A DNA stretch of 39,183 nucleotides from Candidatus Micrarchaeota archaeon (GCA_027024255.1 JALVSQ010000021.1:1-39183); one strand, 5' to 3'; counted from the first letter of the stretch, positions 8,897 through 38,779 are shown. Notes: generated by a model not told the origin, from the sequence alone. A program made the numbers and translations.

Positions 8897-10168
8897 CTAT
8901 TCTCTGCTGAATAATGACCACTTCCACACAGGCTTTACAGTTATTCTTTTCCCCTGCATTTCTACTTCATCTTCCTGGTCATAAGTTAAGATCAAACCTT
9001 CATCTAAGTTAAAGTAATCCATAGCCTCCAACAGACCCTTTATTTCTCTGTCCTTATTTTGCCTGCTCAACTCATAAGTCACCTGAACTGCTTTTGTAAC
9101 GCGCTGAGAGCCATGTTCCTTTACAATAAAGTCGCATTCTCTACCTGCTTTATAGAAGTTCAGGTCGTCACCATATCTCCTCAATAATTCAATTAAAACT
9201 AGATTTTCAAGTAGATGGCCTTTATTCAGTTTGTCTGGTTGTACAAAGTACTTTATGTAAGCATTATCTATTATATATATTTTCTTTGGACTCCTCAAAG
9301 ACTTCTTTGGAGAGTGTGAGAACGGTTCTAATGAGAACAATAAGAAACTCTGCTCACCGTAAAACACATACTTTTTAACAGTGTGTATATCTATTTTTTG
9401 CTGGATAGCATTCATAATGCTGTTGTATGTGTATGTTCTACCTGCATTTCTTATAAGATAAATTAACACCTCTTTCAGAAGAGGAATGTTTTTTACATGC
9501 CATCTGGCAGCAATATCTTTGTAAACTATGTCCTCAAAGTAAGTGCTTATATAAGCTGTGGTGTTTGATTTGACAAGCTCAGGAAAACCTCCATTTATCA
9601 GAAAATTGCTGAATTCTTTTTTTATTTTCCCTTTAATATCAAATCTATAAGCTTTTTTGAAGTCTATCTTTTTATAGGTAAGGTACTCTTTGAAGGAGAA
9701 AGGATATAAAGTGAAGTCAGTATGCCTTCCTGTTAAGTATGTGGTTATCTCTTTACTCAATAATGTTGAGTTTGAGCCTGTGATTATTACCTTATAACCC
9801 ATTTTTATCAATCTATTCAGGAACATATTCCAGTTGGGTTTATTCTGGACTTCATCAAATAAGATAAGCTCAAAATCAGAGCCATCCATGCTGAATACTT
9901 CAAGAATTAAGTCGTATTGGTCTGGCTTGAGATAAACCAGCCGTTCATCGCTGAAATCAAGGTACCTGAACCTGTGGTTTTGAGCAATCTGTCTGAGAAC
10001 GGTACTTTTTCCCACTCTTCTGTGACCGGTAATTACGCAGATTTTTTGCAAAGGACTTTTTAACTCATTTTCTATTTTTTTGTTTATCTCTCTTGTTACT
10101 CCATGTTCCTGTTTAATGAAAAAATCCCTTTGTTCCAGGTATATGTGCCTTAACTCATTAATCTGCAT
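8897..10168 (-). CDS. COG1373-type AAA_14 ATPase with DUF4143 C-terminal domain
   Basis: Walker A GHRRVGKST, LFDEVQ, ITGSNS, LTGR, GGFPE, PKKIYIID, LLENLV, ECDFIV..AVQV. Start ATG 10168 follows TTTATAAA. Confidence 0.9.
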   Translation of the reverse strand: MQINELRHIYLEQRDFFIKQEHGVTREINKKIENELKSPLQKICVITGHRRVGKSTVLRQIAQNHRFRYLDFSDERLVYLKPDQYDLILEVFSMDGSDFELILFDEVQNKPNWNMFLNRLIKMGYKVIITGSNSTLLSKEITTYLTGRHTDFTLYPFSFKEYLTYKKIDFKKAYRFDIKGKIKKEFSNFLINGGFPELVKSNTTAYISTYFEDIVYKDIAARWHVKNIPLLKEVLIYLIRNAGRTYTYNSIMNAIQQKIDIHTVKKYVFYGEQSFLLFSLEPFSHSPKKSLRSPKKIYIIDNAYIKYFVQPDKLNKGHLLENLVLIELLRRYGDDLNFYKAGRECDFIVKEHGSQRVTKAVQVTYELSRQNKDREIKGLLEAMDYFNLDEGLILTYDQEDEVEMQGKRITVKPVWKWSLFSRE

Positions 10169-10211
10169 AAATAATATTGTGCCTTTAATCTTTATAAACC
10201 TATTACTTTTA

Positions 10212-10295
10212 TGAAGTCCAAGCACATAAAAAATGCCTTATATTTGAAGTACATGCACATAAAAAAGAGCTTTTATATGGAATTTGCACACAAAC
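10212..10295. repeat. Degenerate tandem repeat (GCACA cores at 10222, 10255, 10286) between ATPase and gatD
   Basis: TGAAGTCCAAGCACATAAAAAATGCCTTATATT vs TGAAGTACATGCACATAAAAAAGAGCTTTTATAT, then partial GCACACAAA. Confidence 0.8.
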
Positions 10296-10339
10296 ACTTT
10301 CATCAAAGCCTTTTAAATATTACCGGGCAGGATTTAAGC

Positions 10340-11530
10340 ATGAAAAAGGTTAAACTTAGATGGAGGGAAAAGGAGATCGAGGGTCTACTGATTGCTAAAA
10401 AAGGAGAATATCTTGAAATAAAGTTAAAGAGCGGCTACAACATAATGTTGAATGAAAATGAAGTTGAAATTCTTAAGGAAGAGGAATTCAAAAGGAGCTA
10501 TGCAAGAGGAGGAGAAGGTAAAGGAGAAGTCAGGATAATAGGATGTGGTGGCACCATAGGCTCCAAGGTAGATTATGAAACAGGAGGTGTTTCTCCTCAA
10601 ATAAGTGCGAGTGAGCTTGTTGCACAATACCCTGAGATAAAAGATATTGCAGGTGTTGAAACAAGGATGCTTTTTTCAATTCTCAGCGAGAATATGAGGC
10701 AGGAGCACTGGGAAAAGATAGTTGATGAAGTGGCAAAAGCATTTGAAGAGGAAAAGAGAGTTGTTTTACTTCATGGCACAGACACAATGCACTACACTGC
10801 CTCAGCTCTGGCATTTGCATTTAGAGGTATGCCTTCTCCTGTTGTTCTTACGGGCTCTCAAAGAAGTTCAGACAGGCCGAGCAGTGATGCGAGGCTTAAC
10901 CTGCTTAATGCTATTTACACATCAAAACAGGAATTTGGAGAAGTTGCTATAGTCATGCATTCATCAATAAACGATAATGAAGGAGTTGTTTTAAGGGGAG
11001 TTAGAGCAAGAAAAATGCATTCAACAAGAAGAGATGCATTTAAACCAATAAACGAAAGTCCATTGGCTTTTGTTGATTTTAAAAAGGGCATAGAATGGCT
11101 GAGCAAACCATCAAAGCCTGTTAGTGATTGGAAGGTTGAGAACGGCTTTTCAAGAAAAGTGGCCATGGTTTATATTTATCCGGGCATTGAGGAAGGAGTG
11201 TTTGATTATTATAAAAGCTATGATGGAATTGTTTTGCTCGGCACAGGCATGGGCCATACACCTACAGATATCATTGAAAAGATAAATGAAATGAAGGGCA
11301 TTGTTGTTATGAGCACTCAAACAATATACGGAAGGATTAACCTCAATGTTTATTCAACAGGGAGATTGCTCAAAAAGGCAGGAGTTATAGGTCATGAGCT
11401 TGATATTACGCCAGAAGCAGCATTTGTAAAGCTTTCATGGATTCTTTATAGAACGAAGGAGAGGCAAGAGGTGAAAAGGCTGTTTTACACAAATATGGCA
11501 AATGAATTTAGCATGAGGAGTGTTATTTAA
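10340..11530 (+). CDS. gatD: Glutamyl-tRNA(Gln) amidotransferase subunit D
   Basis: IKLKSGYNI N-domain, GGTIGSKVDYETG, HGTDTMHY, GSQRSSDRPSSD, KMHSTRRDAF. Start moved to ATG 10340. Confidence 0.95.
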   Translation: MKKVKLRWREKEIEGLLIAKKGEYLEIKLKSGYNIMLNENEVEILKEEEFKRSYARGGEGKGEVRIIGCGGTIGSKVDYETGGVSPQISASELVAQYPEIKDIAGVETRMLFSILSENMRQEHWEKIVDEVAKAFEEEKRVVLLHGTDTMHYTASALAFAFRGMPSPVVLTGSQRSSDRPSSDARLNLLNAIYTSKQEFGEVAIVMHSSINDNEGVVLRGVRARKMHSTRRDAFKPINESPLAFVDFKKGIEWLSKPSKPVSDWKVENGFSRKVAMVYIYPGIEEGVFDYYKSYDGIVLLGTGMGHTPTDIIEKINEMKGIVVMSTQTIYGRINLNVYSTGRLLKKAGVIGHELDITPEAAFVKLSWILYRTKERQEVKRLFYTNMANEFSMRSVI

Positions 11531-11554
11531 ATACTTTAACCTTCTATTTTTTAT

Positions 11555-13276: not shown

Positions 13277-13321
13277 TATTTCCACACGGAAAAATTTTCC
13301 CAGCATTTTATTTCCACACGG
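13277..13321. repeat. 45-bp direct repeat copy 1 (two TTTCCACACGG cores 32 bp apart)
   Basis: TATTTCCACACGGAAAAATTTTCCCAGCATTTTATTTCCACACGG, identical to 13415-13459. Confidence 0.95.
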
Positions 13322-13414
13322 AAATAAAATTGCAGTCCTTTGAACTAATAAATCAGGGACATCATGATTATCTACTGAAAAAATCATGATAATATAATAA
13401 AAACATAGAAAAAA

Positions 13415-13459
13415 TATTTCCACACGGAAAAATTTTCCCAGCATTTTATTTCCACACGG
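13415..13459. repeat. 45-bp direct repeat copy 2, just upstream of ATPase TATA box
   Basis: Identical to 13277-13321; followed by TTTTTAAAA and ATG 13493. Confidence 0.95.
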
Positions 13460-13492
13460 GAAAATTTTTAAAAGTTTCACATAATTAGCTAT

Positions 13493-14689
13493 ATGATGGA
13501 CGAGGACATGTTTACAAATGTTGTATCCTATTCACAAAAAATGATAAACAGCAATCTTGTTTCAAAACTCAGGCCTTTATCAATGGAAATAGTAAAAATG
13601 ATTCAAAATCAAAGCATTATAACAGCCATAAAGGGGTTAAGAGGTGTGGGCAAATCCTCTCTCCTCATATACTTTCTTTATCATCAAAAAGATAGCATTT
13701 ACATAAATGCTGAATATCTTCTTAAGCAAGGGCTTTCTCTGTATGAAGTGCTTGACTATGCTTATTCTCAGGGTTACAGGGTTTTCGGTATTGATGAAAT
13801 CCATGTTTTGAAAAACTGGCCTCTTGATGTAAAGCTCTTTTATGACCAAACCAGAGCAAAGATTGTGCTGACAGGTTCTTCAGCAATCTCTTTGCATATA
13901 ACCAGCTCTGAATTATCAAGAAGGGTTGTGTCAGTGGATTTAAAGCCGTTTTCGTTCAGGGAGTTTATATACTTTAAGACAGGCGTTTTACTTGAGAAAA
14001 GAACATTGAAAGAAATTTTAGAGAATAAAAAAGAGATAGCAAGGGAAATTGCTCCATTTGTAAGTATTTACAATGAGTTTCTGGAGTATTATGCTCTCCC
14101 TGCTGCTTTTTTTGAGAGTAAGGATGTTTATCCTGGCATAATAGAGAAGATAGTATATCATGATTTGATTTCATTGAAGAGCATTGATTTCAGTTATGTG
14201 GATGCTGCTTTTAAGACATTAAGATTTCTTGTTTCTTCAAAACCAGGGGAAATAAGTTATAATTCTCTGGCAAGTTCTCTGGGCAAATCTGTAAAGTTTT
14301 CAATCAGTCTGATTAATCTTTTAGCAAATGCAGGCATTCTTAATATAATCAATGCCCATGGAAGAGGGCATAAACCAATCAGAAGCGGGGTTAAAATCTC
14401 ATTACCTTTATCGTTCAGAAGCGCACTTGCCAGATACTTTAATACCGAAGTAGAAAAAGGAGCATTGAGAGAAGATTTTTTTATTCACCATGTTGGAAAC
14501 GCTTTTTATGTAAAGGAGATGGGTAGAAGATCTCCTGATTACTGGGTTGATGGTTATGTGTTTGAAATAGGTGGTCCTTCAAAGGGCAAAAGCCAGTTGG
14601 AAAGGTCTGAGAGAGGATTCCTGGTTAAGGAATCTTTATCAACCATGTCAAACGATGTGCCTATTTATCTGTTTGGTTTACTTTATTGA
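13493..14689 (+). CDS. AAA_14/COG1373-type ATPase with C-terminal nuclease-like motif
   Basis: GLRGVGKSS, IDEIH, LTGSSA, LSRR, GALREDFF, PDY..FEIGGPSK; paralog of 37463..38695. Confidence 0.88.
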   Translation: MMDEDMFTNVVSYSQKMINSNLVSKLRPLSMEIVKMIQNQSIITAIKGLRGVGKSSLLIYFLYHQKDSIYINAEYLLKQGLSLYEVLDYAYSQGYRVFGIDEIHVLKNWPLDVKLFYDQTRAKIVLTGSSAISLHITSSELSRRVVSVDLKPFSFREFIYFKTGVLLEKRTLKEILENKKEIAREIAPFVSIYNEFLEYYALPAAFFESKDVYPGIIEKIVYHDLISLKSIDFSYVDAAFKTLRFLVSSKPGEISYNSLASSLGKSVKFSISLINLLANAGILNIINAHGRGHKPIRSGVKISLPLSFRSALARYFNTEVEKGALREDFFIHHVGNAFYVKEMGRRSPDYWVDGYVFEIGGPSKGKSQLERSERGFLVKESLSTMSNDVPIYLFGLLY

Positions 14690-17017: not shown

Positions 17018-17018
17018 C

Positions 17019-20625: not shown

Positions 20626-20710
20626 AAACAACAAATTGGAAGAAATGATTTTAAATCAATTTGATTGGAGCCTCCTGTTATCTTACTGTTCTCAAATCTC
20701 CGAGGAAAAG

Positions 20711-25647: not shown

Positions 25648-26730
25648 ATGGGCATTCTTGAGAAGATAAAAGAGATAGAGGAGGAGATAAGAAAAACGCA
25701 GTACAACAAAGCCACAGAAAAACATATAGGCATACTAAAAGCAAAGCTGGCAAAGTTGAGAAGAGCTTTGCTTTCATCGAAAAAAGGAGGAGGCCATGGC
25801 TTTAGCATTTCTAAATCAGGTGATGCCACAGTTGCCTTAATCGGCTTTCCTTCTGTTGGAAAATCAACACTATTGGCAAAGCTTACAAATGCCGAAACAA
25901 AGGCAGCAGGCTATGCTTTCACAACATTATCAGTTGTTCCGGGCATGTTGCTGTACAAGAAGGCAAGAATACAGATACTTGATTTACCAGGCATTATAGA
26001 AGGAGCAGCGTACGGTAAAGGAAGGGGTAAAGAGGTTATAAGTGTGGCAAGGAATGCGGATTTGCTTTTAATCCTGCTTGAGCCTTTTAATGCAGAGAAG
26101 CACTTTAAAGCGATAATGAAGGAATTAAAGGCAATGGCCATAAGGCACGGAAAAAGGCCTGAAATATATGTAGAAAGAAAGCATAAAGGAGGCATTGCTT
26201 TATTCTACTCAAAACATTTGAGTGTTGATGAGGAGTTGGTTAAATCGATATTGAATGAGTATGGTATTCACAATGCCAATGTTATAATAAGAGAGGAGGT
26301 AACGCCTGAAAAACTCATAGATGTCCTTGAAAATAACAGGGTTTACATTCCTTACATTGTTGCTATAAACAAAATAGATATGTGTGATGAAGAATTGCTT
26401 AACAAGCTCAGGTTAAAGTTTAAAGATGTCGTATTCATTTCAGCAGAAAAGGGCATTGGCATTGAAGAATTGAAGGAAGCAATATTCAATTCCCTGAATT
26501 TTATAAGGGTTTATACAAAGCCTCTTGGCGGAGAACCTGATCTGGATGAGCCGATGATGTTGAGGAGAGGAGCAACGATAAGAGAGGTTTGCTTAAAACT
26601 CCACAGGGATTTGCTCAAAAACTTCAAATATGCTCTCGTATGGGGGAAAAGCGCTAAATTTCCCGGGCAGAGGGTAGGGCTTGACCATAAACTTGAAGAT
26701 GAGGATATAGTTACCATTGTATCAAGATAA
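25648..26730 (+). CDS. DRG/OBG-family GTPase with TGS domain
   Basis: TQYNKATEKHIG, GFPSVGKST, YAFTT, DLPGIIEGA, NKID, VWGKSAKFPGQRVG. Confidence 0.96.
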   Translation: MGILEKIKEIEEEIRKTQYNKATEKHIGILKAKLAKLRRALLSSKKGGGHGFSISKSGDATVALIGFPSVGKSTLLAKLTNAETKAAGYAFTTLSVVPGMLLYKKARIQILDLPGIIEGAAYGKGRGKEVISVARNADLLLILLEPFNAEKHFKAIMKELKAMAIRHGKRPEIYVERKHKGGIALFYSKHLSVDEELVKSILNEYGIHNANVIIREEVTPEKLIDVLENNRVYIPYIVAINKIDMCDEELLNKLRLKFKDVVFISAEKGIGIEELKEAIFNSLNFIRVYTKPLGGEPDLDEPMMLRRGATIREVCLKLHRDLLKNFKYALVWGKSAKFPGQRVGLDHKLEDEDIVTIVSR

Positions 26731-26782
26731 CAATTTTCACCTCTTTCACAAATTTCACCTTTGCAATTTTCACCTGTTTCAC
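26727..26782 (+). repeat. 56-bp direct repeat, left copy (five TTTCAC units)
   Basis: 53/56 identical to 27938-27993; starts at the DRG stop codon. Confidence 0.95.
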
Positions 26783-26819: not shown

Positions 26820-27941
26820 ATGAAAGAACTTAAAGAGTATGTTAAAGCCCTTGAAGATAGACCACTAACATTTGAAGATGAGGATTTATTTGTAGATAGA
26901 GAAATAGAGCTAAAAAAGATGGCAGAGCTTGATTATTACTTTGAAGGAAAGATAATAGGTGTGTGCGGCCAGAGGGGCATAGGAAAAACAACTCTCTTCA
27001 ACTTTTCAAGGTTCCCTGGAAAAAATAAACTTATAATAAAAATTATAGACAGGGAAAATAAACTCTCCATCATATCCAACATAATTGGTGAGATAATTAC
27101 ATATTCAAAAACAAAGGGCTATAATGAGATTGAAAAAATGGGTAAGAAACTCTTCACAAAAATTCATGTATCAAAAAAAGAGGCTGTGGGCATATCCTAT
27201 ATAATTGAATATAAGCAAACAAAGGAGGAAAAAATATCACTCTTTAACTTCTTGAAGTCGTTTAAGAAATTCATGGATTTGTTGAGTAAAAAGGAAAGGC
27301 TCGTGATAGTACTTGATGAAATAGATAAGCAGAAGGTGGATGAGATTCTCCTTCTTGTGGATGCTATAAAAGATGCATTTGTATCAAACTCCATCACTCT
27401 GTTTGTTGCCTTGCCTTATGAATTTTACGAAAACTTTATATCATCAAAGACGAGTTCAACAGAAACTCACAACCTTGAGAATGTATTCAGTTATATGTTC
27501 CTTCTGGAACCTTTTTCAGATGACGATGTGAAGAGAATAATCTCAAGAAGATTTCCTTTAAGTCTTATTGAGGAAGAGGCATTGAATAAGATTGTTGAGT
27601 TTGCTGATGGAAATCCAAGAAAGGCAATAACAACGCTTAAAGAGGCAGGCATAATTGCAGAGGGAAAGATAAGGCTAAGTGATGTAAAAGGAGTTATATC
27701 AAGGTACATAAGAACTTGGATAAAATCAACTAAGTTAACTCAAAATGAACTGAATGTTTTCAGATTAATTGAAGATGGTAGAGTTGCAGATATAACTCAA
27801 GGAGTATCTAAAAAACTCAGAAAATCAAGGTCTGTGGTATACAAGTACTTAAAGAAGTTTGAGGAAGCAGGGCTTTTAAATCTGGAAGGTAAAAATGCTG
27901 AGCTGAGCAGGATGGGCAGGCTTGTAAAGGAAGTGATATAA
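26820..27941 (+). CDS. Archaeal AAA+/STAND-like ATPase with C-terminal winged HTH
   Basis: FVDREIEL, GQRGIGKTT, IVLDEIDK, GNPRKAI, C-terminal KSRSVVYKYLKKFEEAGLL. Confidence 0.85.
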   Translation: MKELKEYVKALEDRPLTFEDEDLFVDREIELKKMAELDYYFEGKIIGVCGQRGIGKTTLFNFSRFPGKNKLIIKIIDRENKLSIISNIIGEIITYSKTKGYNEIEKMGKKLFTKIHVSKKEAVGISYIIEYKQTKEEKISLFNFLKSFKKFMDLLSKKERLVIVLDEIDKQKVDEILLLVDAIKDAFVSNSITLFVALPYEFYENFISSKTSSTETHNLENVFSYMFLLEPFSDDDVKRIISRRFPLSLIEEEALNKIVEFADGNPRKAITTLKEAGIIAEGKIRLSDVKGVISRYIRTWIKSTKLTQNELNVFRLIEDGRVADITQGVSKKLRKSRSVVYKYLKKFEEAGLLNLEGKNAELSRMGRLVKEVI

Positions 27942-27993
27942 CAGTTTTCACCTCTTTCACAAATTTCACCTTTACAATTTTCACCTCTTTCAC
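27938..27993 (+). repeat. 56-bp direct repeat, right copy
   Basis: ATAACAGTTTTCACCTCTTTCACAAATTTCACCTTTACAATTTTCACCTCTTTCAC; starts at the ATPase stop codon. Confidence 0.95.
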
Positions 27994-28331: not shown

Positions 28332-28366
28332 ACATTTTTAAACTTTTCCCGGAACAACATTCACTT

Positions 28367-28483
28367 ATGATAAAGAAAAAGGTTACATCCGAAGAGGGTG
28401 TAATCGTAGTTAAAGAGTACATATTGGGTGTTGAGATAAGTAAGAAGCATATATACAAGCCTAAATCTTCAGGTTCTGATTAA
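28367..28483 (+). CDS. Putative 38-aa small protein
   Basis: Hand translation MIKKKVTSEEGVIVVKEYILGVEISKKHIYKPKSSGSD*; TTTTTAAA box ~25 bp upstream; below ORF track cutoff. Confidence 0.45.
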   Translation: MIKKKVTSEEGVIVVKEYILGVEISKKHIYKPKSSGSD

Positions 28484-29428: not shown

Positions 29429-29432
29429 AAAC

Positions 29433-29690
29433 TCACTCTAATACCTTTTCAATGCCTTTCAATTCCTTTACAATTGATTTTATTGCCTTTTTGAGTGATG
29501 CTCTTGGGTCTTTTGATTTAACAACTACTAAAGGATAACCTGCCAGAGGGTGTTCCCATTTGTAGGCTGCAAATGAGACATCTTTATCTTCATTAAGCCT
29601 TTCAACTATGAGTTCTGCTAAGCCAGGGTCTTTATCAAGAATCCTGAATTCAAGAATACCTTTTTTATCATTCAGTATTTCAATCTCCAT
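29433..29690 (-). CDS. rpoL: RNA polymerase subunit L (Rpo11)
   Basis: VSFAAYKWEHPL motif, size; GGTG RBS before ATG 29690. Confidence 0.88.
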   Translation of the reverse strand: MEIEILNDKKGILEFRILDKDPGLAELIVERLNEDKDVSFAAYKWEHPLAGYPLVVVKSKDPRASLKKAIKSIVKELKGIEKVLE

Positions 29691-29778
29691 AAAACCACCT
29701 AACAAACATTTTTAGCAATTGTTTTAAAACCTTAACCGTTCTCCCTTATGAATAAGAATTAGATAAAAAAGAAAGAGG

Positions 29779-31398
29779 TTAGTCTAACTCATTGCTTTCG
29801 TTTTCCTTTTTACTTGTTCCTTTTGCAGATATTATATCATCGATTCTTAAGACAAGCCTTGCTGTCTCAACTGCTGAAGATATGGCCTGCCTTTTCACTT
29901 TCAATGGTTCAAGCACACCCAACTCTTTCATATCGCTTACCTTTCCATTGCCTACATCAACACCAAAGTAAATTCCGTTTTCCTTTGAATGCTTGCTCCT
30001 CAGTTCTACAAGTGTGTCTATGGCATCCATACCTGCATTCTCTGCAAGTGTTGTTGGTATTGATTCAAGTGCATCTGCAAATGCCTCAACAGCTAATTGC
30101 TCCCTTCCTCCGACCTCTACAGCGTAATCCCTCAATCTCTTTGCCAGCTCTATTTCAACGCTTCCTCCTCCTGCAACGTACTTACCTACTTCAAGGGTTG
30201 ATGCCACACTGCCCAATGCATCTTTTATTGCTCTTTCAACCTCATTTACAACATGTTCTGTTCCTCCCCTTACAAATATTGTAACACTCTTAGGGTCTTT
30301 GCAGTTTTCTACAAACACCATTGCTTCTCCACCAACCTTTCTTTCCTCAACAATCTCTGCTTCTCCTAAGTCTTTCTCGCTTAAATCGTCAAGGCTTGAT
30401 GCTATTCTGGCTCCTGTTGCCCTGCTCAATTTCTCCATATCACTCTTCTTAACCCTTCTAACCGCTAATATACCTGCCTTTGCTAAGTAATGCTGTGCAA
30501 CATCGTCAATGCCTTTCTGAACAAAAACAACATTTGCCCCAGCCTTCTTTATCTTTTCAACCATCTTCTTTAACATTTCCTCTTCCTGCCTTAAAAATGC
30601 CTCTAACTGCTCAGGAGCCGTTATGTTTATCTTTGCATCTGTCTCTGTTTTCTCAACCTCCAATGCAGCATCAATCAACGCAATTTTTGCATTCTTTATT
30701 TTCTTTGGCATACCTGCATGCACAACTTCTTTGTCAATAACAATCCCGTTTACAAGCCTTGTATCCGCAACCTCCCCTCCTGCTTTCTTTTCTATCTTTA
30801 CAAGGTCTAAATCAACATAGTACTTTCCATCTCTTTTTTCTGAGACTTGCTTTACTGCCTTTACAACAATATCTGCAATCAATTCCTTTTCCTTATCACT
30901 GCCTATACCCTTTGAACCCATGGCAACCATTGCAATTCTCTTTAAAGTCTCAGAATCATCAGGTGTTACATCCTCTCCTATTTTCTCAAGCTCCTCTTGA
31001 GCTTTTGCTTCTGCTAATTCAAACCCTTTTATTATGGTTGTTGGATGTATATTTTTGTCTAACAATTGACCTGCATTTTTTAGCAAGTTTCCTGCAATAA
31101 CAACGCTTGTTGTTGTTCCATCTCCAACCTCTTTGTCCTGTGTCTTTGCAATCTCAACCATCAGCTTTGCTGTTGGATGTTCCACATTCATCTCTTCAAG
31201 AATTGTTGCTCCATCGTTTGTGATTATTATGTCTCCTAAATCGCTTACAAGCATCTTGTCCATGCCCTTAGGGCCAAGTGTTGTTTTCACTATTTGTGCA
31301 ATTGCATAGCCGATGGCTATGTTCAATCTCATTGCATCTCTACCTATAATCCTCTGTGCCCCTTCGGGCAAAGGTTCTGAACTTATCTTTCCTGCCAT
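29779..31398 (-). CDS. ths: Thermosome (group II chaperonin) subunit
   Basis: [30 protein letters not shown]. Confidence 0.98.
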
Positions 31399-31551
31399 TT
31401 ATACCACCCCAAAATAACGGATTTTTTGTCAATACTTATGGTAAAAACATTTAAAAATATTGCTTTGCCTTTTGGGCTTTTTGGTCTGTCAGATAGTAAT
31501 TCAGTAAAGAAAACTCCAGCCTCTCTTATTTTTAACCTGCTATTAACTTTC

Positions 31552-32979
31552 TTATTCTTTCTCTAACTTCAGGGTTTTTTCTGCTAATTGTTCAAGTGCT
31601 GTTTCAGATGCTTCTTTAACATCATAATCCTCGTATTTATCCTTTAACCTTTCCATAAGAGCATTAATGATCTTCCTATTTGCTACCCCTAATTTTCCTA
31701 AAGCCTTAGCAGCTGTTTCTTTAACATACCATTCTTCATTTTTGTCTTTTAACCTCTCTACAAGAGCATTAACAACTTCTTTATTTGCTACTCCTAATTT
31801 TCCTAAAGCCTTAGCAGCTGCTTTTCTAACACTTGGGTGTTCACTTTCATCATTCAACCTTTCTACAAGAGCATCAATAACCTTTTCACTCGCACCACCT
31901 AATTCTCCTAAAGCCAAACATACTCCAGCTCTTTCTTTCCAATCTGTGCTGTTAATATCAGGTAAAATTCTCTCAACAATTTCTTCCTCCATTTTGTTCT
32001 TTTTAGCTATTTTACCAAGGGCTTCAGCAGCTGCTTTTCTAACACTTGGGTGTTCACTTTCATCATTCAACCTTTCTACAAGAGCATTAATAACTTCCTC
32101 ACTTGGAACTCCTAATTCTCCTAAAGCCAGACATACTCCATGTCTTTCTTTCCACTCTGTGCTGTTAATACCGGGTAAAATTCTTTCAACAATTTCGTTT
32201 TCAATGTTATTCTTCTTAGCTGTTTTACCAAGAGCTTCGACAACTGCTTCTCTAACATCTTCATCCTCATCTTTCAGCCTCCCTACAAGAGCATTAATAA
32301 CCTTTTTATTTGCAACCTCCAGTTTACCTAAAGCCTCAGCAACTGCTTTTTTAACATCCCATTTTTCGTTCTCATCCTTCAACCTCTTTACAAGTACTTT
32401 AATGAGCTTCTCGTTTTCTTCCACTGACTTAACCAATGCTTTAATAACTGTTTTTATAACCTTTCGGAATTTACCTTCCTTTTTAAGTTTATCTGTCGTA
32501 GATTTGGTTTCTTTTCTTGCAGCCCCTAATTTGCCAAGGGCTTCAGCAGCTTCTTTTCTAACCCTTGTGTATTCCCTTTTATCATTCAACCTCTCTACAA
32601 GAGCATTAATAACCTTCTTACTTTTTACTCCCAGATCACCCAGGGCAGCACAGGCTTCCATCCTTTCCTCCCAATCCTCACTATTAATCTTAACCAAAAG
32701 AGTTTCTATTACTTTATTGACCAGTTCCTTGGTTACTTCCTCTCCGAACCTTTCCTTTATCTCTTCAATAGTCTTTTTATCAGGGATTCCTTCCTTAAAC
32801 TCTTCAAGCAATCTTTTAACCACCTCTTCTTTGTATTTATGGACCTGAGAAGGAGCTATAAGTCTTACTAACTTTTCATCAGGAATTCCTTTTCCTTCCA
32901 TTAACTTATTAAGTAAATTGGCCTCTCTTCTTTTAGCTTCTTCTATATTCTCCTTCACCCTTTCCTTGAATTTTCTCAT
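31552..32979 (-). CDS. HEAT (PBS-lyase-type) repeat protein
   Basis: Repeated VINALVERL.D....VRKAAAEALGKLG units; 213-bp internal DNA duplication (31813 vs 32026). Confidence 0.92.
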   Translation of the reverse strand: MRKFKERVKENIEEAKRREANLLNKLMEGKGIPDEKLVRLIAPSQVHKYKEEVVKRLLEEFKEGIPDKKTIEEIKERFGEEVTKELVNKVIETLLVKINSEDWEERMEACAALGDLGVKSKKVINALVERLNDKREYTRVRKEAAEALGKLGAARKETKSTTDKLKKEGKFRKVIKTVIKALVKSVEENEKLIKVLVKRLKDENEKWDVKKAVAEALGKLEVANKKVINALVGRLKDEDEDVREAVVEALGKTAKKNNIENEIVERILPGINSTEWKERHGVCLALGELGVPSEEVINALVERLNDESEHPSVRKAAAEALGKIAKKNKMEEEIVERILPDINSTDWKERAGVCLALGELGGASEKVIDALVERLNDESEHPSVRKAAAKALGKLGVANKEVVNALVERLKDKNEEWYVKETAAKALGKLGVANRKIINALMERLKDKYEDYDVKEASETALEQLAEKTLKLEKE

Positions 32980-33067
32980 TATGTTAATTATTGTGTAGGA
33001 AAATGTTTAAAAAACTTAGATGGATTATTTCTCAGGAGTTCTGGACAGAGCAGAAGTTAAATCAATC

Positions 33068-33097
33068 TGAAAAATTCTTTTAAAGAATTACCGGACA
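33068..33097. repeat. Dispersed palindromic intergenic element, copy B
   Basis: Contains perfect inverted repeat AATTCTTT-T-AAAGAATT; reverse complement is 28/30 identical to 7560-7589. Confidence 0.75.
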
Positions 33098-33140
33098 GAC
33101 CAGGCTTTTCTTTATAAACATATCCTCTGCTTACCATTTT

Positions 33141-33710
33141 ATGAGAAGAATTTCATGGCCTCTGTACATAGCTGCCTTTACCATAAGCTTATTCATATTT
33201 GCTCTTGGCTTTTACTTTGCTTTGCTTGTGGAGGAGCACGCCAAAGCGACCATGGCTGAGAAACTTGATAAATTAACTCAAAACAGCGTTTTAATGCAAC
33301 TCTTTTTATTGACAAATTATGATCCTTCATTCTGCCCCATCTATAAGGAGGCTTTGAAGAGGAGTTATGAAGAAGTTGAGACAATAGGCAATGAACTAAC
33401 ATACCTTGAAGAGGTTAGAGGAGAAAGAAATCTGGAATTAAAGAAGGATTATTTTATGTTTGAGTTAAAGACATTTTTACTTGCTAAAAGAGTAAAGGAG
33501 ATATGCAGTACTGATGAGCATTTTGCCCTTTACTTTTATTCTAAAAATTGTTCTGAATGCGATGAGTTAGGAAAGCAATTGATTAATGAGAGAAAGAAGG
33601 ACCCCTCTCTAAAAGTTTTTTCGTTTGAAGATGGTATTAATAGTTCTGTTGTTGAATCATTAAAAGCAAAGTACAATGTTACAGTGCCATCTGTAATTAG
33701 AGTTGATTGA
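33141..33710 (+). CDS. Membrane-anchored protein with C-terminal thioredoxin-like CxxC domain
   Basis: N-terminal TM helix, LYFYSKNCSEC, KYNVTVPSVI. Confidence 0.75.
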   Translation: MRRISWPLYIAAFTISLFIFALGFYFALLVEEHAKATMAEKLDKLTQNSVLMQLFLLTNYDPSFCPIYKEALKRSYEEVETIGNELTYLEEVRGERNLELKKDYFMFELKTFLLAKRVKEICSTDEHFALYFYSKNCSECDELGKQLINERKKDPSLKVFSFEDGINSSVVESLKAKYNVTVPSVIRVD

Positions 33711-34743
33711 ATAGTTTTATCCACCTTTTAGCAATTCTTTTTATATCATATTCCTTTGCCTTTTTAATGCACTCCTTTTCATCTGCTTTCTTTGCTTCTT
33801 CAAACGCTTTCATAAAAGAGTGCCTGTCCCAGAATACACTTGTTGCTAATTCCTCTCCTGCTGTGCCTTTTAATGCAATCACAGGCATGCCTGAGGCTAA
33901 GGCCTCAAGAACAACCAGCCCCTGAGTATCAAATTTTGAAGTGAATATAAGGGCAGTTTTTGTTTTGTAAAGTCTTTTTAGCTCTTCATCGCTTACAAAG
34001 CCAAGAAAATGAACAAGGTGAGAAACATTGAATTCTTTTGCTTTTGATTTAAAATAATCAATTCCCGGCCCTTTTCCAGCAATATACAAGTGAATATTCT
34101 TTAAGTAAGGAAATACAACATCAAATCCTTTTTCTTTAACAACCCTGCCAACATGTAGAAGTGAATCTTCTTTACATTCTCTTTTTCCTTTGAATGCATC
34201 TGTTTTTATGCCGTTAGGCATTACAATAGCATTTATTCCATGTGCCTTTAATTTATTTGATGCATATGTGGTTGGAGCAGTTACAACATCGAATTTTGAG
34301 TAAAGAAATTTTAAGTATGCCCAGGCAAGTTTTTCAGCACTCTTTTCTATTAACTTGTTCTTTGCTATGTAATGGGTTGCATCTGCGATGCTTGTGTGGA
34401 ATGTGGCTATTGAAGGAATGCTAAATGCATGTGCCATTGCCAGTGCAGCCCATGCAGTTAGAGCAACACCATGGTTATGCACTATGTCAATGTTCTTTTC
34501 CTTAAATAGGCTCTTTAATTTTAGAAAGTTGGGAAATGCAAATTTATAGTCGGGATAAGGCTTGAAAGGTGTTGATGTGAAGTAAAACACATCTTTAGTT
34601 TGCATTTCTTTACCATCAGGAGATGGAGCAAATACATAAACCTTATGGCCCAGTTTTTCTAACTCTTCTTTAAGCAATGAAATGCTCACAACAACACCGT
34701 CTTTATTTGGTAAATAACTGTCTGTAAAAAAGGCTATATTCAT
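33697..34743 (-). CDS. Glycosyltransferase family 4
   Basis: FTDSYLPNKDGV, PNGI, HVGRVVKEKG, DTQGLVVLEALASGMPV. Confidence 0.93.
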   Translation of the reverse strand: MNIAFFTDSYLPNKDGVVVSISLLKEELEKLGHKVYVFAPSPDGKEMQTKDVFYFTSTPFKPYPDYKFAFPNFLKLKSLFKEKNIDIVHNHGVALTAWAALAMAHAFSIPSIATFHTSIADATHYIAKNKLIEKSAEKLAWAYLKFLYSKFDVVTAPTTYASNKLKAHGINAIVMPNGIKTDAFKGKRECKEDSLLHVGRVVKEKGFDVVFPYLKNIHLYIAGKGPGIDYFKSKAKEFNVSHLVHFLGFVSDEELKRLYKTKTALIFTSKFDTQGLVVLEALASGMPVIALKGTAGEELATSVFWDRHSFMKAFEEAKKADEKECIKKAKEYDIKRIAKRWIKLFNQL

Positions 34744-35438
34744 TCTCTCACAGCCTCATATTTGTTAAATGAGGAGTTGAGTAAATTTACTTTAAAAAAG
34801 TTTATTGTGTGAAAAACAGCATATCTCAACCAGCCCCATTTCCTTATCCTTCTGTTACTTGTGAATGTTCTTGCATTCTCAACAAAAACAACCTTACATA
34901 TTTTCTTTACTCTTTTTATTAAATCAGTATCTTCACCTGTTTGCATATCTCTGATTCCACCAACCTTATCGTAAACACTCCTTTTTATTGCTATACTGTC
35001 ACCTGAGGCAAACACAAAGCCTATTAAGAAAGCAAGAGGGATGAGGCATTTATTTAATATGAATCCACCTACTCTTTCAATTAAATTTGATTCTTCAACA
35101 TAAATGCTTCCCACAGCAGCGCAGGCTTTTCCTTCTATTATTGGTCTGGTTAAGTTGTAAAGCCACTCATTATCATAAACTGCATCGGCACTTGCCAAAA
35201 CAATTATATCTCCTTTTGCCTTTTCAACACCCTTTGCCCTTCCATAGCCAATACCTTCTCTCTTCACATCAACAATTCTGCATTTGAATTTCTTTGCTAT
35301 TTCCCTTGTCTTATCTTTACTTTTATAATCAGCTATTATTACCTCATCAGGTTTAAGGCTTTGTCTCATTATACTTTTCAGTGTCTTTGCTAAATACCTC
35401 TCTTCATTGTAAGTTGGAATAACGATGCTTATCCTCAC
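34740..35438 (-). CDS. Glycosyltransferase family 2
   Basis: ISIVIPTYNEE, SKDKT, SAD in place of DxD, GED, TSNRR. Confidence 0.92.
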   Translation of the reverse strand: MRISIVIPTYNEERYLAKTLKSIMRQSLKPDEVIIADYKSKDKTREIAKKFKCRIVDVKREGIGYGRAKGVEKAKGDIIVLASADAVYDNEWLYNLTRPIIEGKACAAVGSIYVEESNLIERVGGFILNKCLIPLAFLIGFVFASGDSIAIKRSVYDKVGGIRDMQTGEDTDLIKRVKKICKVVFVENARTFTSNRRIRKWGWLRYAVFHTINFFKVNLLNSSFNKYEAVRE

Positions 35439-35537
35439 AACTTATGCTTAACAAACAACATTTAAAAAAATTCCTGAGGCAGTGTGTTTTGCTTTTTGGA
35501 GTAATTTCTCTTCATTTTTAACCTGCTATTAACTTTC

Positions 35538-36352
35538 TTATTCTTTCTCTAACTTCAGGGTTTTTTCTGCTAATTGTTCAAGTGCTGTTTCAGATGCTTC
35601 TTTAACATCATAATCCTCGTATTTGTCCTTTAACCTTTCCATAAGAGCATTAATGACTTCTTCATTTGCTACTCCCAATTCTCCCTGCGTATTTTAACTA
35701 AAGCCTCAGCAACTGCTTTTTTAACATCCCATTTTTCGTTCTCATCTTTTAACCTCCCTATAAGAGCATCCATTACTTCTTTACTTGCAATTCCTAATTC
35801 TCCTAAAGCCAGACATACTTCATATCTTTCTTCCGGGTTTCTGCTGTTAATACCGGGTAAAATTCTTTCAACAATTTCTTCCTCCATTTTGTTCTTTTTA
35901 GCTATTTTACCCAGGGCTTCAGCAACTGCTTTTTTAACATACGGCAATTCGCTCCCATCTTTCAACCTTTCTAAAAGAGCATTAATAACCTTCTTACTTT
36001 TTACTCCCAGATCACCCAGGGCAGCACAGGCTTCCATCCTTTCCTCCCAGTCCTCACTATTAATCTTAACCAAAAGAGTTTCTATTACTTTATTGACCAG
36101 TTCCTTGGTTACTTCCTCTCCGAACCTTTCCTTTATCTCTTCAATAGTCTTTTTATCAGGGATTCCTTCCTTAAACTCTTCAAGCAATCTTTTAACCACC
36201 TCTTCTTTGTATTTATGGACCTGAGAAGGAGCTATAAGTCTTACCAACTTTTCATCAGGAATTCCATCTTCCATTAACTTCTTAAATAAATTAGCCTCTC
36301 TTCTTTTGGCTTCTTCTATATTCTCCTTCACTATTTTCATCAATTTTCTCAT
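35538..36352 (-). pseudogene. Frameshifted, internally deleted paralog of HEAT gene 31552..32979
   Basis: ORF stops at 35669, but the paralog's C-terminus (NALMERLKDKYEDYDV...LEKE*) continues in another frame to TAA at 35538-35540. A 14-nt junction at 35685-35698 shifts the frame. A 227-aa product may still be made. Confidence 0.8.
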
Positions 36353-36464
36353 TATGTTAATTATTGTGGAATGAAATGTTTAAAAAACTTAGATGGAATT
36401 ATCCTGAATGATTATCTGGAAAGCACCTGTTTTAAATAATCTTTGTTGAGTTAAATACAAAACC

Positions 36465-37409: not shown

Positions 37410-37413
37410 TTGT

Positions 37414-37461
37414 CCATTTTTCTGGACAAAAATTTCAATTTTTGTAAATTTTTCTGGACAA
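37414..37461. repeat. 48-bp direct repeat, copy adjacent to ATPase stop codon
   Basis: CCATTTTTCTGGACAAAAATTTCAATTTTTGTAAATTTTTCTGGACAA, identical to 38732-38779. Confidence 0.96.
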
Positions 37462-37462
37462 G

Positions 37463-38695
37463 CTATACAAGGCAGGCAAGGTATAAGGGTAAGGTGACCA
37501 CATTACCTTCTATACTTATCTCTTCTCCTTCTTTTAAAAGAAAGCCCTTTCTTATCTGGCTTTTTGTTTTTGACGGGCCTCCTATTTCAAGGTCAAGGAA
37601 CGCATTGCCTGCCCTTATCTTATAATCAGGCTGTTTTTTTCCATGATTGTAGAAAAGAGGTATTTTTTTGTAATAAAAAGAGGAGACAACTGCATCTTCT
37701 CTGAGGCCACCTATGTTTTCTCTGAGATAAAGGTTAAGTGTTAAGCTGTGCCTTAATAAAGGAGATGAAAACAAAAACTTTCTTTCTTTCCTTAACGAAG
37801 CAGATGAAGGGGGATATGGCAACACAGATATAAGAAAGGAGGATGTTTCAAGAGCATTTAAGATGTTCAACACAGTCGTTCTTGATGTTCCTGCTATTTC
37901 TGCAAACCTCTGGAGCGATATCTTTTCAGGTGGGGAAAGGGCTATTGTTTCAACTATCTTTCTTGCTTTTTCACCTGCATCTATGTTGAAGCCTCCTATG
38001 TAGGGGAAATCAAATGTTACTATCTGGGAGAGGAGGCTGTAAGCAACATCCCTGACATTCATCCCGAATGCAAGGGGAAATCCATGGGTGAGGTATTCCC
38101 TGAATTCGTAGCTTAAACTCCTTAACCTTAATAAATAATCTTTTGCCTTTGTGTATGCATCCTTTGGCATAGATGAAAATATGTCAATTGCAGATTCATT
38201 TACATGTATGCCTTTCTTTATTCTCAGATATTCCCTGAAGGTAAGAGGAGGCAGTTCATAGAATACGGCCCTTCTTGCCATTGCAGAACCTTTGAGCCTT
38301 ATCTTTATGGCTGAGGATCCCGTTGCTATTATTTTAAGCTTGAAGTTATCATATATTATTTTAAGCTTTTTATCCCATTCGCTAATGTCTGTTAGCTCAT
38401 CTATGTAAAGTGTTCGGAGGTTGGTGTGCTTTATGTAGTCTTTAACAACCTTCACAATGTCCAGTTTGTAATAAGATAGACTCGACCCGTCTATGAACAT
38501 GCCGTCTCTTTCAGCCATTGCCTGATTCAATGAAACAGATTTTCCTATACCTCTTAATCCGTAATATATGAAAGCAAGTTCTCCTTTTTCATTTTTGAGC
38601 CTTTCAACAATATCTCTTTGTTTGTACTTTTTAGCATCTTCTTTTCTTTCCTCTTTCTTTTCTTCCATGAACCTTATGAATTCAAAAACGTCCAT
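37463..38695 (-). CDS. AAA_14/COG1373-type ATPase with HTH and nuclease-like C-terminus
   Basis: GLRGIGKS, IDEL, ATGSSA, GFP, HTH LQRFAEIAGTSRTTV, GGLRED, PDY..LEIGGPSK. Confidence 0.88.
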   Translation of the reverse strand: MDVFEFIRFMEEKKEERKEDAKKYKQRDIVERLKNEKGELAFIYYGLRGIGKSVSLNQAMAERDGMFIDGSSLSYYKLDIVKVVKDYIKHTNLRTLYIDELTDISEWDKKLKIIYDNFKLKIIATGSSAIKIRLKGSAMARRAVFYELPPLTFREYLRIKKGIHVNESAIDIFSSMPKDAYTKAKDYLLRLRSLSYEFREYLTHGFPLAFGMNVRDVAYSLLSQIVTFDFPYIGGFNIDAGEKARKIVETIALSPPEKISLQRFAEIAGTSRTTVLNILNALETSSFLISVLPYPPSSASLRKERKFLFSSPLLRHSLTLNLYLRENIGGLREDAVVSSFYYKKIPLFYNHGKKQPDYKIRAGNAFLDLEIGGPSKTKSQIRKGFLLKEGEEISIEGNVVTLPLYLACLV

Positions 38696-38731
38696 TGTAA
38701 GTCTTTTTAATAAAATACTTTAAAAATATTG

Positions 38732-38779
38732 CCATTTTTCTGGACAAAAATTTCAATTTTTGTAAATTTTTCTGGACAA
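38732..38779. repeat. 48-bp direct repeat, copy upstream of ATPase TATA box
   Basis: Identical to 37414-37461; CTGGACAA cores 32 bp apart. Confidence 0.96.

Follow-up and report, generated by a model that had tools for sequence, protein, structure and literature searches.

An ATPase gene family of an 875-kb archaeal genome (G000) is marked by direct repeats at the two ends of many of its genes: 12 of the 24 family members are bracketed by a direct repeat of 41–60 bp, with one copy at the promoter and the other at the stop codon, and each repeat consists of two sites (palindromes or hexamer clusters) placed 31–33 bp apart. When brackets were called at an upstream/downstream match score of at least 32, none of the 794 other ORFs of G000 carried one. 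The best non-family scores (31, 30, and 24) came from two ORF calls within a CRISPR array and from a repeat-protein gene; with these three rows dropped, the difference (12/24 versus 0/791) gave a Fisher p of 1.6e-20. Each repeat is private to its own locus, and the cassettes are scattered across at least 15 contigs of this 52-contig metagenome assembly, which is 90.9% complete. From the sequence comparisons, we consider it somewhat probable, taking the whole together, that the repeats are operators of the encoded protein itself, that each cassette is gained and lost as a unit, and that paired arrays are bridged. No account of such a private-operator cassette arrangement was found in the literature for this very common candidate anti-virus family.

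The window, i.e. the whole 39,183-nucleotide stretch of DNA analysed, is one contig of G000 and contains four family genes (g1–g4), whose neighbours are housekeeping genes. The four stand-alone ATPase ORFs of the original prediction are all present, as are their repeats with the predicted spacings (33/31 bp at g1, 32 bp at g2, 33 bp at g3, and 32 bp at g4). The genes, arrays, and A/T boxes are as follows.

8897..10168, minus strand: g1, AAA_14 + DUF4143 ATPase-winged-helix-nuclease of PDC-S01 type, 423 aa (Pfam, PADLOC, AF2)
10222..10297, no strand assigned: g1 array, three GCACA(T/C)AAA sites with first bases at 10222, 10255, and 10286 (33 and 31 bp apart)
13277..13324, plus strand: distal copy of the g2 array, with a pair of partly palindromic TTTCCACACGGAAA sites at 32-bp spacing
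13415..13462, plus strand: promoter-proximal copy of the g2 array, 98% identical to the distal one and ending 30 bp 5' of the ATG
13465-13474, plus strand: g2 A/T box, TTTTTAAAAG
13493..14689, plus strand: g2, AAA_14 ATPase of the same family (Pfam AAA_14, 77 bits; PADLOC)
26727..26782, plus strand: g3 upstream array, 56 nt, five TTTCAC hexamers with a 33-bp internal period
26790-26798, plus strand: g3 A/T box, TTTTTAAAA
26820..27941, plus strand: g3, ATPase_2-like P-loop ATPase with a Csa3/CasR-like C-terminal winged helix (Pfam, PADLOC)
27938..27993, plus strand: g3 downstream array, 56 nt, 95% identical to the upstream array
37414..37461, minus strand: g4 downstream array, 48 nt, 100% identical to the upstream array and ending one base before the stop codon
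37463..38695, minus strand: g4, AAA_14 ATPase of PDC-S01 type (Pfam AAA_14, 65 bits; weak DUF4143, 19 bits, below cut-off; PADLOC)
38719-38727, minus strand: g4 A/T box
38732..38779, minus strand: g4 upstream array, 48 nt, two TTTTTCTGGACAA sites (plus-strand writing) at 32-bp spacing, the array lying 36 bp 5' of the ATG

The g3 upstream array begins inside the stop codon of a DRG-GTPase gene and ends 37 bp 5' of the g3 ATG; its downstream copy runs from within the g3 stop codon to the stop codon of a convergent DUF134 gene, which it overlaps. At g2, each 48-nt block holds two TTTCCACACGG sites at 32-bp spacing and both blocks lie upstream of the gene, a point that the original prediction did not mention; no repeat copy was found at the g2 stop codon, and none was found at that of g1 (upstream/downstream score 7). 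The g1 array (offset 33, score 16 in the internal-repeat scan of upstream regions) is located in a divergent intergenic region, its nearest GCACA site being 53 bp from the g1 ATG and 43 bp from that of an asparaginase-like gene (10340-11530), so the sites are present as predicted but the divergent neighbour may be their owner. The proximal block stands just upstream of a TTTTTAAA-like box in g2, g3, and g4, 30–37 bp before the ATG. Full second copies at the stop codon were confirmed for two genes, as predicted; these are g3 and g4. The proposed unit of repeat, promoter, ORF, and repeat describes these two in the window, and 12 of the 24 genes genome-wide, but not g1 and g2. Since 12 of the 24 family genes, including g1 and g2, are without a downstream copy, that copy is not essential.

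The fixed spacing is also a property of the family. The best internal offset was 31–33 bp in 10 of the 24 family upstream regions versus 14 of 797 others (p = 8e-11), and at least 8 of those 14 are neighbours sharing the same intergenic space. The chance that the repeats are random matches or assembly artefacts is negligible. The assembly is a fragmented metagenome and contigs of an independent run (X1) break at the 48-nt exact repeat of g4, but another X1 contig covers 24095-30519, including both g3 copies, with zero differences, which excludes an artefact there; the within-genome statistics and the occurrence of the bracket architecture in other genera, other families, and one bacterium likewise stand against it.

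Among relatives of the same order, brackets were identified in 20 of 68 family genes and 0 of 75 others, and of the 30 family upstream regions that scored, 26 had a best offset of 31–33 bp, as did 6 of 7 from other families of the class. A mostly bacterial sample gave a best offset of exactly 32 bp in 10 of 18 scoring regions, and this offset occurred at 10 of 60 family genes versus 5 of 241 others (p = 7e-5). In the bacterial cases, palindromic 32-bp units are arranged in tandem and end at most 36 bp from the called ORF start, with two of these arrays extending a few bp beyond it. Judged by sequence, the 32-bp geometry is kept across Archaea and Bacteria while the site sequence varies freely. 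Orthologous cassettes retain the site arms and have diverged in the spacers, as seen for one cassette of G000 (A) and its counterpart in G001, and for another (C40a) compared with that in G018. Close homologues of g3 were found in G069 alone, where one that is 42% identical to g3 has the same TTTCAC/GTGAAA hexamer array within a 50-bp bracket of 100% identity.

The products of g1 and, probably, of g2 and g4 are AAA_14/DUF4143-type ATPase-winged-helix-nuclease proteins, corresponding to the PADLOC candidate PDC-S01. Their P-loop AAA_14 domains score 118.3, 77.4, and 65.3 bits, respectively, over the curated Pfam cut-off (27 bits), which g3 does not reach; DUF4143 scored 69 bits in g1 and 19.3 bits in g4 (cut-off 28.1), with no Pfam match in g2. 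PDC-S01 models matched g1 over its full length (PDLC04787, 6e-100), g2 (3.8e-23), and g4 (3.9e-20). In contrast, g3 gave a weak ATPase_2 match alone in Pfam (24.3 bits, cut-off 33.2) and matched just Csa3/CasR-like C-terminal models in PADLOC, none for PDC-S01, and no nuclease domain was found in either search; g3 is not of the COG1373 type. The Walker A and B motifs, R148, E321, and D346 are invariant in an alignment of 61 sequences (g2 and g4 included for E321 and D346), the last two belonging to a PD-(D/E)XK nuclease motif. Structural modelling of g1 (AF2, pLDDT 95.2) predicts an AAA+ plus winged-helix fold resembling SSO1545, PABY2304, CED-4, and ORC/Cdc6. Foldseek matched the model to 2fna, 2qen, and CED-4, behind which rank ORC subunits and 2qby (Cdc6/Orc1), a resemblance only. 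Brackets are also present around members without a nuclease (g3 and the short forms C1, C11, and C31), which excludes a requirement for the nuclease in cis.

The number of AAA_14 genes varies from 0 to 30 across 30 relatives, and orthologous cassettes occupy different genomic contexts. In another genus, a 1,482-bp cassette is 97.9% identical between two genomes (G094 and G119) precisely from repeat to repeat, and its flanks are 83% identical. Across the cassettes, the repeats enclose no ORF other than that of the ATPase. A search for empty sites in a related strain (run X3) yielded a contig joining 26733 to 27978, an empty g3 site with its junction at the repeats. Searches of the 90.9% complete G000 found neither tyrosine recombinases (PF00589, 0 matches) nor serine recombinases, TnpB, or Y1 transposases. 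The prediction of a cassette that can be excised but lacks its own recombinase is supported by the empty site and by these searches, and the cassette is probably the unit of gain and loss, with the direct repeats making the gene deletable through recombination between them.

We propose that each gene forms a self-contained one-gene cassette. Its product, a winged-helix P-loop ATPase of AAA+/STAND-like type that in most members also has a C-terminal PD-(D/E)XK nuclease (g3 being a nuclease-less cousin), would bind its own private repeats as cognate operators at two, sometimes three, sites 31–33 bp centre to centre. This distance is about three helical turns and would place the sites on one DNA face; since the sites abut or overlap the TATA/BRE region, the protein may control its own promoter, most likely by repression. 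That the repeats are cognate operators with autoregulation is, in our view, probable. The predicted own bipartite site of each protein is strongly supported by the private sites, the 32-bp geometry, and the arms kept in orthologues, whereas the winged helix of STAND proteins, which is often structural and without DNA binding, counts against the operator reading. In the G000 lineage, the whole array is present again at the stop codon in about half of the copies, and ATP-dependent oligomers could bridge both arrays and loop out the 1.1–1.3 kb gene, and so keep a potentially toxic nuclease under its own tight and insulated control. Binding of the downstream array and looping are put forward tentatively, as a possibility. 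The presence of a bracket does not depend on neighbour-gene orientation (p = 0.35), which argues against a simple anti-read-through role. The idea of a ‘self-targeting’ ATPase–DNA site system found no support, and the original interpretation is, as a whole, partly supported.

The bracket could instead be a footprint of cassette movement, its downstream copy being a non-regulatory terminal redundancy or att-like end left by trans-acting or host recombination and the operator array merely a duplicated part; we regard this as rather unlikely. It would account for the precise end of the high-identity unit at the repeats in G094 and G119, and for bracket ends that vary relative to the promoter, with the TATA box or leader included in some and absent in others. 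Left and right copies are 96–98% identical within a genome, compared with ~90% for orthologous cassettes, and most brackets are 95–100% identical over spacers as well as arms, a pattern more readily explained by recent duplication or gene conversion than by selection acting independently on two sets of operators. Among 33 well-kept brackets, mismatches were not significantly rarer in the site arms (3.0% versus 4.4% elsewhere, p = 0.14). On the other hand, the downstream palindrome arms are kept in diverged brackets: mismatches at L019 affect 3 of 28 arm positions versus 24 of 72 elsewhere, and L090 and L014 behave similarly, although the pooled arm-conservation test is weak (p = 0.038, several poor alignments). 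Some relatives do show att-like features, the bracket being a tRNA 3' end at L105 (tRNA-Asn by ARAGORN) and at L029 (read by eye as an intron-bearing tRNA, with no ARAGORN call), and at least six att-like copies with mixed cargo lying beside tRNA-Asn in G119. Genomes with such tRNA-type brackets encode tyrosine recombinases elsewhere, those of G094, G119, and G024 being on other contigs. In contrast, no tyrosine recombinase was found in G001 and G069, which carry operator-type brackets, nor in G000; moreover, the bracket sequences all differ, so a single sequence-specific integrase cannot serve all of them, and they travel with the gene rather than deriving from the target.

It is improbable that the ATPase-winged-helix(-nuclease) protein synapses the two arrays and itself drives excision and re-insertion of its gene with no separate recombinase, although the apparent lack of a classical recombinase in G000, the ATPase as sole gene inside the unit, the invariant E321 and D346, the arrays precisely at the unit ends, and the differing contexts with one empty site would suit it. 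If true, the arrays would be promoter control and transposon ends at once, and integrase-less small symbiont-type archaeal genomes could shuffle a large defence-type repertoire. However, nuclease-less members are bracketed as well, no circular junction was seen and no cassette was observed to be inserted twice, and the empty g3 site skips 1,244 bp and not 1,211 bp, as would be expected from slippage or homologous recombination between 16-nt sub-repeats. We know of no biochemical precedent for an ATPase mobilizing its own gene. An integrated mini-replicon, with an Orc1/Cdc6-like initiator and the array as an iteron-type origin, is very improbable. The ORC/Cdc6 chains among the fold matches and the repeated sites with A/T-rich spacers recall such an element, and private specificity would avoid incompatibility among copies, but the family has 24 copies in 875 kb, its direct repeats border a gene rather than an unwinding element, the 32-bp units of bacterial homologues sit operator-like against the start codon, a single X1 contig passes through g3 and its flanks, and no plasmid or viral relatives were found.

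The operator-cassette arrangement that we favour can be compared with several known systems. In the available text of PMC12988326, PDC-S01 ranks fourth in frequency among prokaryotic defence candidates and is described as an ATPase–PD-(D/E)XK fusion not yet validated, and in that of PMC3424549, DUF4143/COG1373 is listed as a PD-(D/E)XK of unknown function; the available portions of both describe no cis elements, autoregulation, or flanking repeats for PDC-S01/COG1373. As in PDC-S01, a patchy single-gene system expanded in Archaea, g1, g2, and g4 match the models, whereas g3 and the short forms fall outside them yet share the repeat architecture. The winged-helix antitoxin AbiEi occupies paired sites in its own promoter by cooperative binding, according to the available part of PMC7319586. 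Paired sites at the own promoter are thus shared with AbiEi-type autoregulated defence or toxin–antitoxin genes. Dual-operator loops are represented by lambda CI with OL and OR, and by lac and gal; the lambda CI gene has an array of its own operators on either side, the two being bridged by oligomers, and a location between two arrays of the same logic holds for g3 and g4 in the window and for 12 of the 24 genes genome-wide. Unlike in AbiEi and lambda CI, the regulator here would be the ATPase effector itself, the near-identical arrays lie 1.1–1.3 kb apart at the exact gene ends, and there are ~24 paralogues, each with a private sequence. Archaeal Orc1/Cdc6 proteins have repeated binding sites adjoining their own genes and a fold that the Foldseek results predict to be similar (AAA+ plus winged helix), but the ATPases studied here occur in many copies per genome, have a nuclease domain, and are bracketed by direct repeats instead of inverted boxes around an A/T-rich unwinding element.

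Integron cassettes and tRNA-att elements are likewise one-gene units with repeat boundaries, presence/absence among strains, and arrays (as in G119). In contrast to integrons, no IntI-type tyrosine recombinase with attI was found next to the cassettes, which are dispersed rather than collected in one array, carry a full repeat at both ends instead of one attC at the 3' end, and in G000 each have their own repeat, including its promoter-side sites. Unlike tRNA integrative elements, the cassettes contain no integrase, and the g1–g4 repeats are not parts of tRNA 3' ends, a feature seen in relatives (L105 and L029); the window tRNAs at 16945, 20813, and 24049 do not adjoin these genes. In REPtrons, a RAYT transposase gene is flanked by its own REP sequences, which are thought to be recognized by its product, and a single gene flanked by repeats of this kind is the common element; REP sequences surround the gene in inverted orientation and are scattered in many copies, whereas each repeat described here occurs only twice, in direct orientation.

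All four stand-alone P-loop ATPase genes of the window and their repeats were recovered in the window at the positions given in the original prediction, as was the second full repeat copy claimed for the stop codon of two genes (g3 and g4). The genes and their repeats are as follows.

8897-10168, minus strand: g1, AAA_14 type; three GCACA sites starting at 10222, 10255, and 10286, common to the divergent asparaginase-like gene
13493-14689, plus strand: g2, AAA_14 type; 48-nt block present twice, both copies upstream (13277-13324 and 13415-13462)
26820-27941, plus strand: g3, ATPase_2-like; 56-nt block at 26727-26782 and 27938-27993, 95% identical, bracketing the gene
37463-38695, minus strand: g4, AAA_14 type; 48-nt block at 37414-37461 and 38732-38779, 100% identical, bracketing the gene

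In all blocks of the window, a shorter site occurs twice, 31-33 bp apart. The promoter-side blocks of g2-g4 end 30-37 bp before the ATG and are adjoined by an A/T box, which we read as a TATA box by analogy with archaeal promoters; start codons are approximate because ORF calling simply took the longest frame. The array of g2 is doubled upstream instead of at the stop codon, and no ORF lies in the 90 bp between its two copies (13325-13414), which contain ATCATGAT as a short direct repeat.

The genome containing the window as its contig C21 (G000; 874,647 bp, 52 contigs, 90.9% complete) yielded 34 AAA_14 matches in a family search and 23 true family genes in an iterated profile search; with g3, this gives 24 family genes. 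In a self-comparison of the genome, direct repeats of 41-60 nt with a spacing of 1090-1320 bp coincide with family ATPase genes. Every ORF was then assigned a bracket score, defined as the best ungapped match between its upstream (-220 to +60) and downstream (-60 to +160) regions. Twelve of the 24 family genes scored 32-57, and three more, located in a tandem cluster on contig C26, matched solely via the coding 3' ends of neighbouring paralogues. The top scores among the 794 non-family ORFs were 31 and 30 (calls within a CRISPR array) and 24 (a repeat protein), with all others at 16 or below; the enrichment at family genes is highly significant (Fisher p = 1.6e-20, for 12/24 versus 0/791 after these three top non-family rows were dropped). 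Measured from the last base of the stop codon, the downstream copy begins at positions from 40 bp before to 23 bp after. Each repeat is private to its own locus; only one has a third copy, located where contig C30 begins, and this copy represents an alternative junction. There, the end of the C40b cassette that faces the promoter, made up of the leader, the array, and the next 37 bp (C40:24998-25112), recurs at C30:1-115 with 98% identity, after which C30 runs into different sequence. This second assembly stems either from a variant strain or from another context. A 28-nt repeat pair on C48 (895/1984) encloses no ATPase gene, and no closed ORF of at least 60 aa was found there. The C26 cluster (24540-34992), outside the window, comprises six family ATPase genes without brackets in 11 kb, three of which have near-identical 3' coding ends, pointing to recent tandem duplication.

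The spacing of the sites was measured as the best internal direct-repeat offset of each upstream region, with regions of score >=9 regarded as scoring. In G000, offsets of 31-33 bp were found in 10 of the 14 scoring family genes versus 14 of the 223 scoring non-family regions, at least eight of which are neighbours in the same intergenic space. Such repeats are thus not equally common beside unrelated genes, in line with the original prediction, and no strong 31-33 bp array (score >=12) was seen in G000 away from family genes. The same offset occurs in 26 of the 30 scoring family regions of the order (exactly 32 in 17) and in 6/7 of those of the class. In a mostly bacterial sample, an offset of exactly 32 bp was found in 10/18 family regions versus 5/29 other genes (10/60 versus 5/241 when all genes are counted; p = 7e-5), and the hosts of these bacterial cases include Gammaproteobacteria, Bacteroidota, Desulfobulbaceae, and Chlamydiae, among others. 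The bacterial arrays consist of two, once three, tandem units, which are near-palindromic and ~32 bp long in 8 of the 10 cases and shorter direct repeats 32 bp apart in the other two; the end of the last unit falls within a range from 36 bp before the called ORF start to 11 bp past it. Since the spacing recurs across Archaea and Bacteria with differing sequence, the geometry is characteristic of the protein family, and each gene has its own private sequence. Because the ATPase gene is the only gene travelling with each site pair, we infer that the site pairs are probably cognate operators of the encoded ATPase.

Conservation between orthologues follows the same pattern, in that the arms of the sites are retained and the spacers are lost. 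The proteins of cassette A in G000 and the relative G001 are 76% identical, and both loci have ACTCA...TGAGT arms; a pair of TGCTCA-N6-TGAGCA palindromes with a 32-bp spacing is present both at C40a and at its G018 orthologue. Close homologues of g3 (39-43% identity) were found solely in G069, which belongs to a different taxonomic family, against 0 of 18 in its own family. One of them, 42% identical to g3, has a 50-nt, 100%-identical bracket built of the same TTTCAC/GTGAAA hexamers, and another has a 36-nt bracket on a different motif.

The proteins encoded by g1, g2, and g4 match the PADLOC candidate defence system PDC-S01 (AAA_14 ATPase and DUF4143 nuclease), and the C-terminus of g3 matches the winged helices of Csa3/CasR in PADLOC. 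No PDB relative was found by sequence. The AF2 model of g1 (pLDDT 95.2, pTM 0.93) has as its best structural neighbours 2fna and 2qen, both uncharacterised archaeal ATPases, followed by CED-4, ORC/Cdc6, RuvB, clamp loaders, Avs4, and Apaf-1. Walker A, Walker B, R148, E321, and D346 are invariant in 61 aligned sequences. A homodimer prediction for g1 from protein alignment A1 gave no dimer support and is uninformative either way. A short subfamily (C1, C11, C31, and C26_25840) stops after the winged helix; since C1, C11, and C31 are bracketed, the nuclease domain is not needed in cis for the bracket.

Among 30 relatives, all with genomes of 0.5-1.5 Mb, which suggests that G000 too is a DPANN-type archaeon with a small genome, the AAA_14 copy number ranges from 0 to 30, and matches at 1e-10 are present in 18 of 31 genomes including G000. 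The sample from the same taxonomic family and order comprised 66 loci with 68 evaluable ATPase genes, the relatives not being independent, and brackets of 40-78 nt were found in 20 of the 68 genes, two at atypical positions. Seven more scored 16-25, including five in which one short site is left downstream and one (L029) with a tRNA-end repeat; the 75 other ORFs in these loci scored 18 or below (p = 6e-8). In other families of the class, 3/24 genes have clear brackets and three others have matches of 23-43 nt. In an all-prokaryote sample of 80 loci collected with a degenerate Walker-A pattern, 77 of them from Bacteria and 3 from Archaea according to their record titles, a full bracket was present in one of the 58 evaluable family genes, and one more has a 32-nt palindromic match. 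The full case is an AAA_14 gene of a Saprospirales bacterium (L222, 2567-3700) with a 63-nt repeat at the promoter and stop codon containing two sites 32 bp apart. Brackets are therefore strongly enriched in, but not confined to, the archaeal lineage. Scans of viral contigs with the g1 protein and of genome contigs with the g3 protein found no relative, and when metagenomes were scanned with the site arms of the C29-type array, the one stretch returned was an irrelevant terminator-like hairpin in an unrelated contig.

The window occurs in four sequencing runs (X1-X4) labelled as hydrothermal vent metagenomes, and an empty site, which the original prediction had proposed to look for in related genomes, was found in one of them. 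In X3, a different sample whose contigs are ~1.3-1.7% off the window, a 1692-nt contig spans 26414-26733 and then 27978-29349; it lacks g3 and all but one sub-repeat, whereas g3 is covered in X1, X2, and X4. The contig skips 1244 bp, and 16 nt at the joint fit both sides. The skip is as long as the repeat spacing (1211) and one internal period (33) together, which fits a deletion between sub-repeats; alternatively, the joint may be an ancestral single site. A gap over g4 in X3 (37860-38526 uncovered, flanks covered) was rejected as an empty site, as no joint is listed.

Two side observations concern other parts of the window. Two HEAT-repeat paralogues with long internal repeats are located at 31552-32979 and 35669-36352, and the second is missing in related strains, because contigs of X3 and X4 skip 35484-36428 (943 bp). 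Logan contig depth is unusable for copy number. Summed depth is very high in all four runs at 20518-21184 and 23853-24519, and these peaks coincide with tRNA-Arg (20813-20887) and tRNA-Gln (24049-24122) and so reflect conserved sequence from other organisms rather than a copy-number signal.

The original prediction had counted uniform synteny of orthologous loci against a mobile cassette; such synteny was not found. Cassettes A and B adjoin in G001 and lie on separate contigs with unrelated flanks in G000, and in the same-genus pair G010/G016 the ATPase gene is the sole shared part. Between G094 and G119, from one genus in another family of the class, a segment of 1482 bp reaching from one repeat to the other, each included to its outermost base, is 97.9% identical, versus 83% for the tRNA-Asn flank. 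These sharp repeat-to-repeat borders, the differing contexts, and the empty site together indicate that the cassettes are discrete units that move or are exchanged. The downstream repeat in G094 is the 3' end of tRNA-Asn. In G119 (L144, contig C19, 5711-13092), a ~50-nt att-like repeat occurs at least six times behind tRNA-Asn, and the cargo between its copies comprises a small ORF, which we take to encode a putative secreted protein, the ATPase, hemerythrin, DUF488, GNAT, and a 442-aa ORF without family. No integrase was found on the stretch read, and from its organization the region looks like an integron-like or tandem-accretion island. A 21-nt bracket in G024 matches the 3' end of a candidate intron-bearing tRNA read by eye, at which ARAGORN called no tRNA.

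In G000, no match to Phage_integrase, Resolvase, the TnpB-type domain, or Y1_Tnp was found, and the tyrosine recombinase family, including the Xer type, had no match in G000, G001, or G069; the genomes searched are 86-94% complete, and such absence is therefore not proof. The three genomes with tRNA-type brackets (G024, G094, and G119) encode tyrosine recombinases on other contigs. The only integrase-like gene found in G000 is Cas1, encoded beside a CRISPR array on contig C13 (CRISPR arrays and Cas1: C13:12837-14262, C46:2414-2713, and C13:14762-15574; repeats of 29-30 nt, period ~66 bp), and one might speculate on this ground that a Cas1-type, repeat-duplicating insertion makes the brackets.

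The downstream copy may be functional, as a bound site array, or a footprint of duplication or movement. In favour of function, the span of the bracket usually equals exactly the site array, and diverged brackets keep the palindrome arms downstream: L019 has mismatches at 3/28 arm positions versus 24/72 elsewhere, and L090 retains two good palindromes. A pooled arm-versus-rest test on diverged brackets gave p = 0.038, a weak result that includes several bad alignments. The footprint reading is favoured by the median identity of ~97.6% in 33 well-kept brackets, in which arm mismatches are not significantly rarer than others (3.0 versus 4.4%, p = 0.14), and by bracket ends whose position shifts with respect to the promoter. 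Within a genome, the left and right copies also resemble each other more than copies of orthologues do. Taken together, the observations would fit gene conversion under selection as well as renewal at each move. Bracket presence showed no association with neighbour-gene orientation (p = 0.35 downstream, p = 0.29 upstream).

In the model we propose, which extends from sequence to binding, the sign of regulation, looping, and insertion, paired units of the ATPase would bind the two sites of its own promoter, separated by three helical turns, and would thereby control that promoter. At genes with a second array at the stop codon, oligomers that form in an ATP-dependent manner may bridge both arrays and enclose the gene, and the direct repeats would make the gene deletable and define the unit exchanged between strains. 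The 32-bp rule in Archaea and Bacteria offers a testable handle, since under it the effector ATPase should bind DNA sequence-specifically and control itself, and the site pairs name the DNA for binding, structural, and reporter work. With the full bracket, a single gene becomes a discrete, sharply bordered unit, and such units vary among close strains, in genomes without a detectable integrase. Should the bracket be regulatory, it would form a compact self-looping unit; should it instead reflect movement, it would point to an undescribed way of moving single genes. Under either reading, an 875-kb genome could hold 24 diverged copies without regulatory cross-talk.

Integrons, tRNA-integrating elements, and Orc1 origins were considered as the identity of the cassettes, and each fails in a defining feature tested. 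A 2026 survey (PMC12988326) ranks PDC-S01 with the commonest defence gene candidates of prokaryotes. In the open-access text searched, no description of private 32-bp-spaced sites or gene-bracketing repeats was found for this ATPase family; as far as that literature goes, the protein family is already known as a defence candidate, and the private sites and the gene-bracketing repeats appear to be new. We would file the arrangement as a probable combination of two kinds already described, one being a single-gene defence candidate under its own control and the other a gene cassette bounded by repeats.
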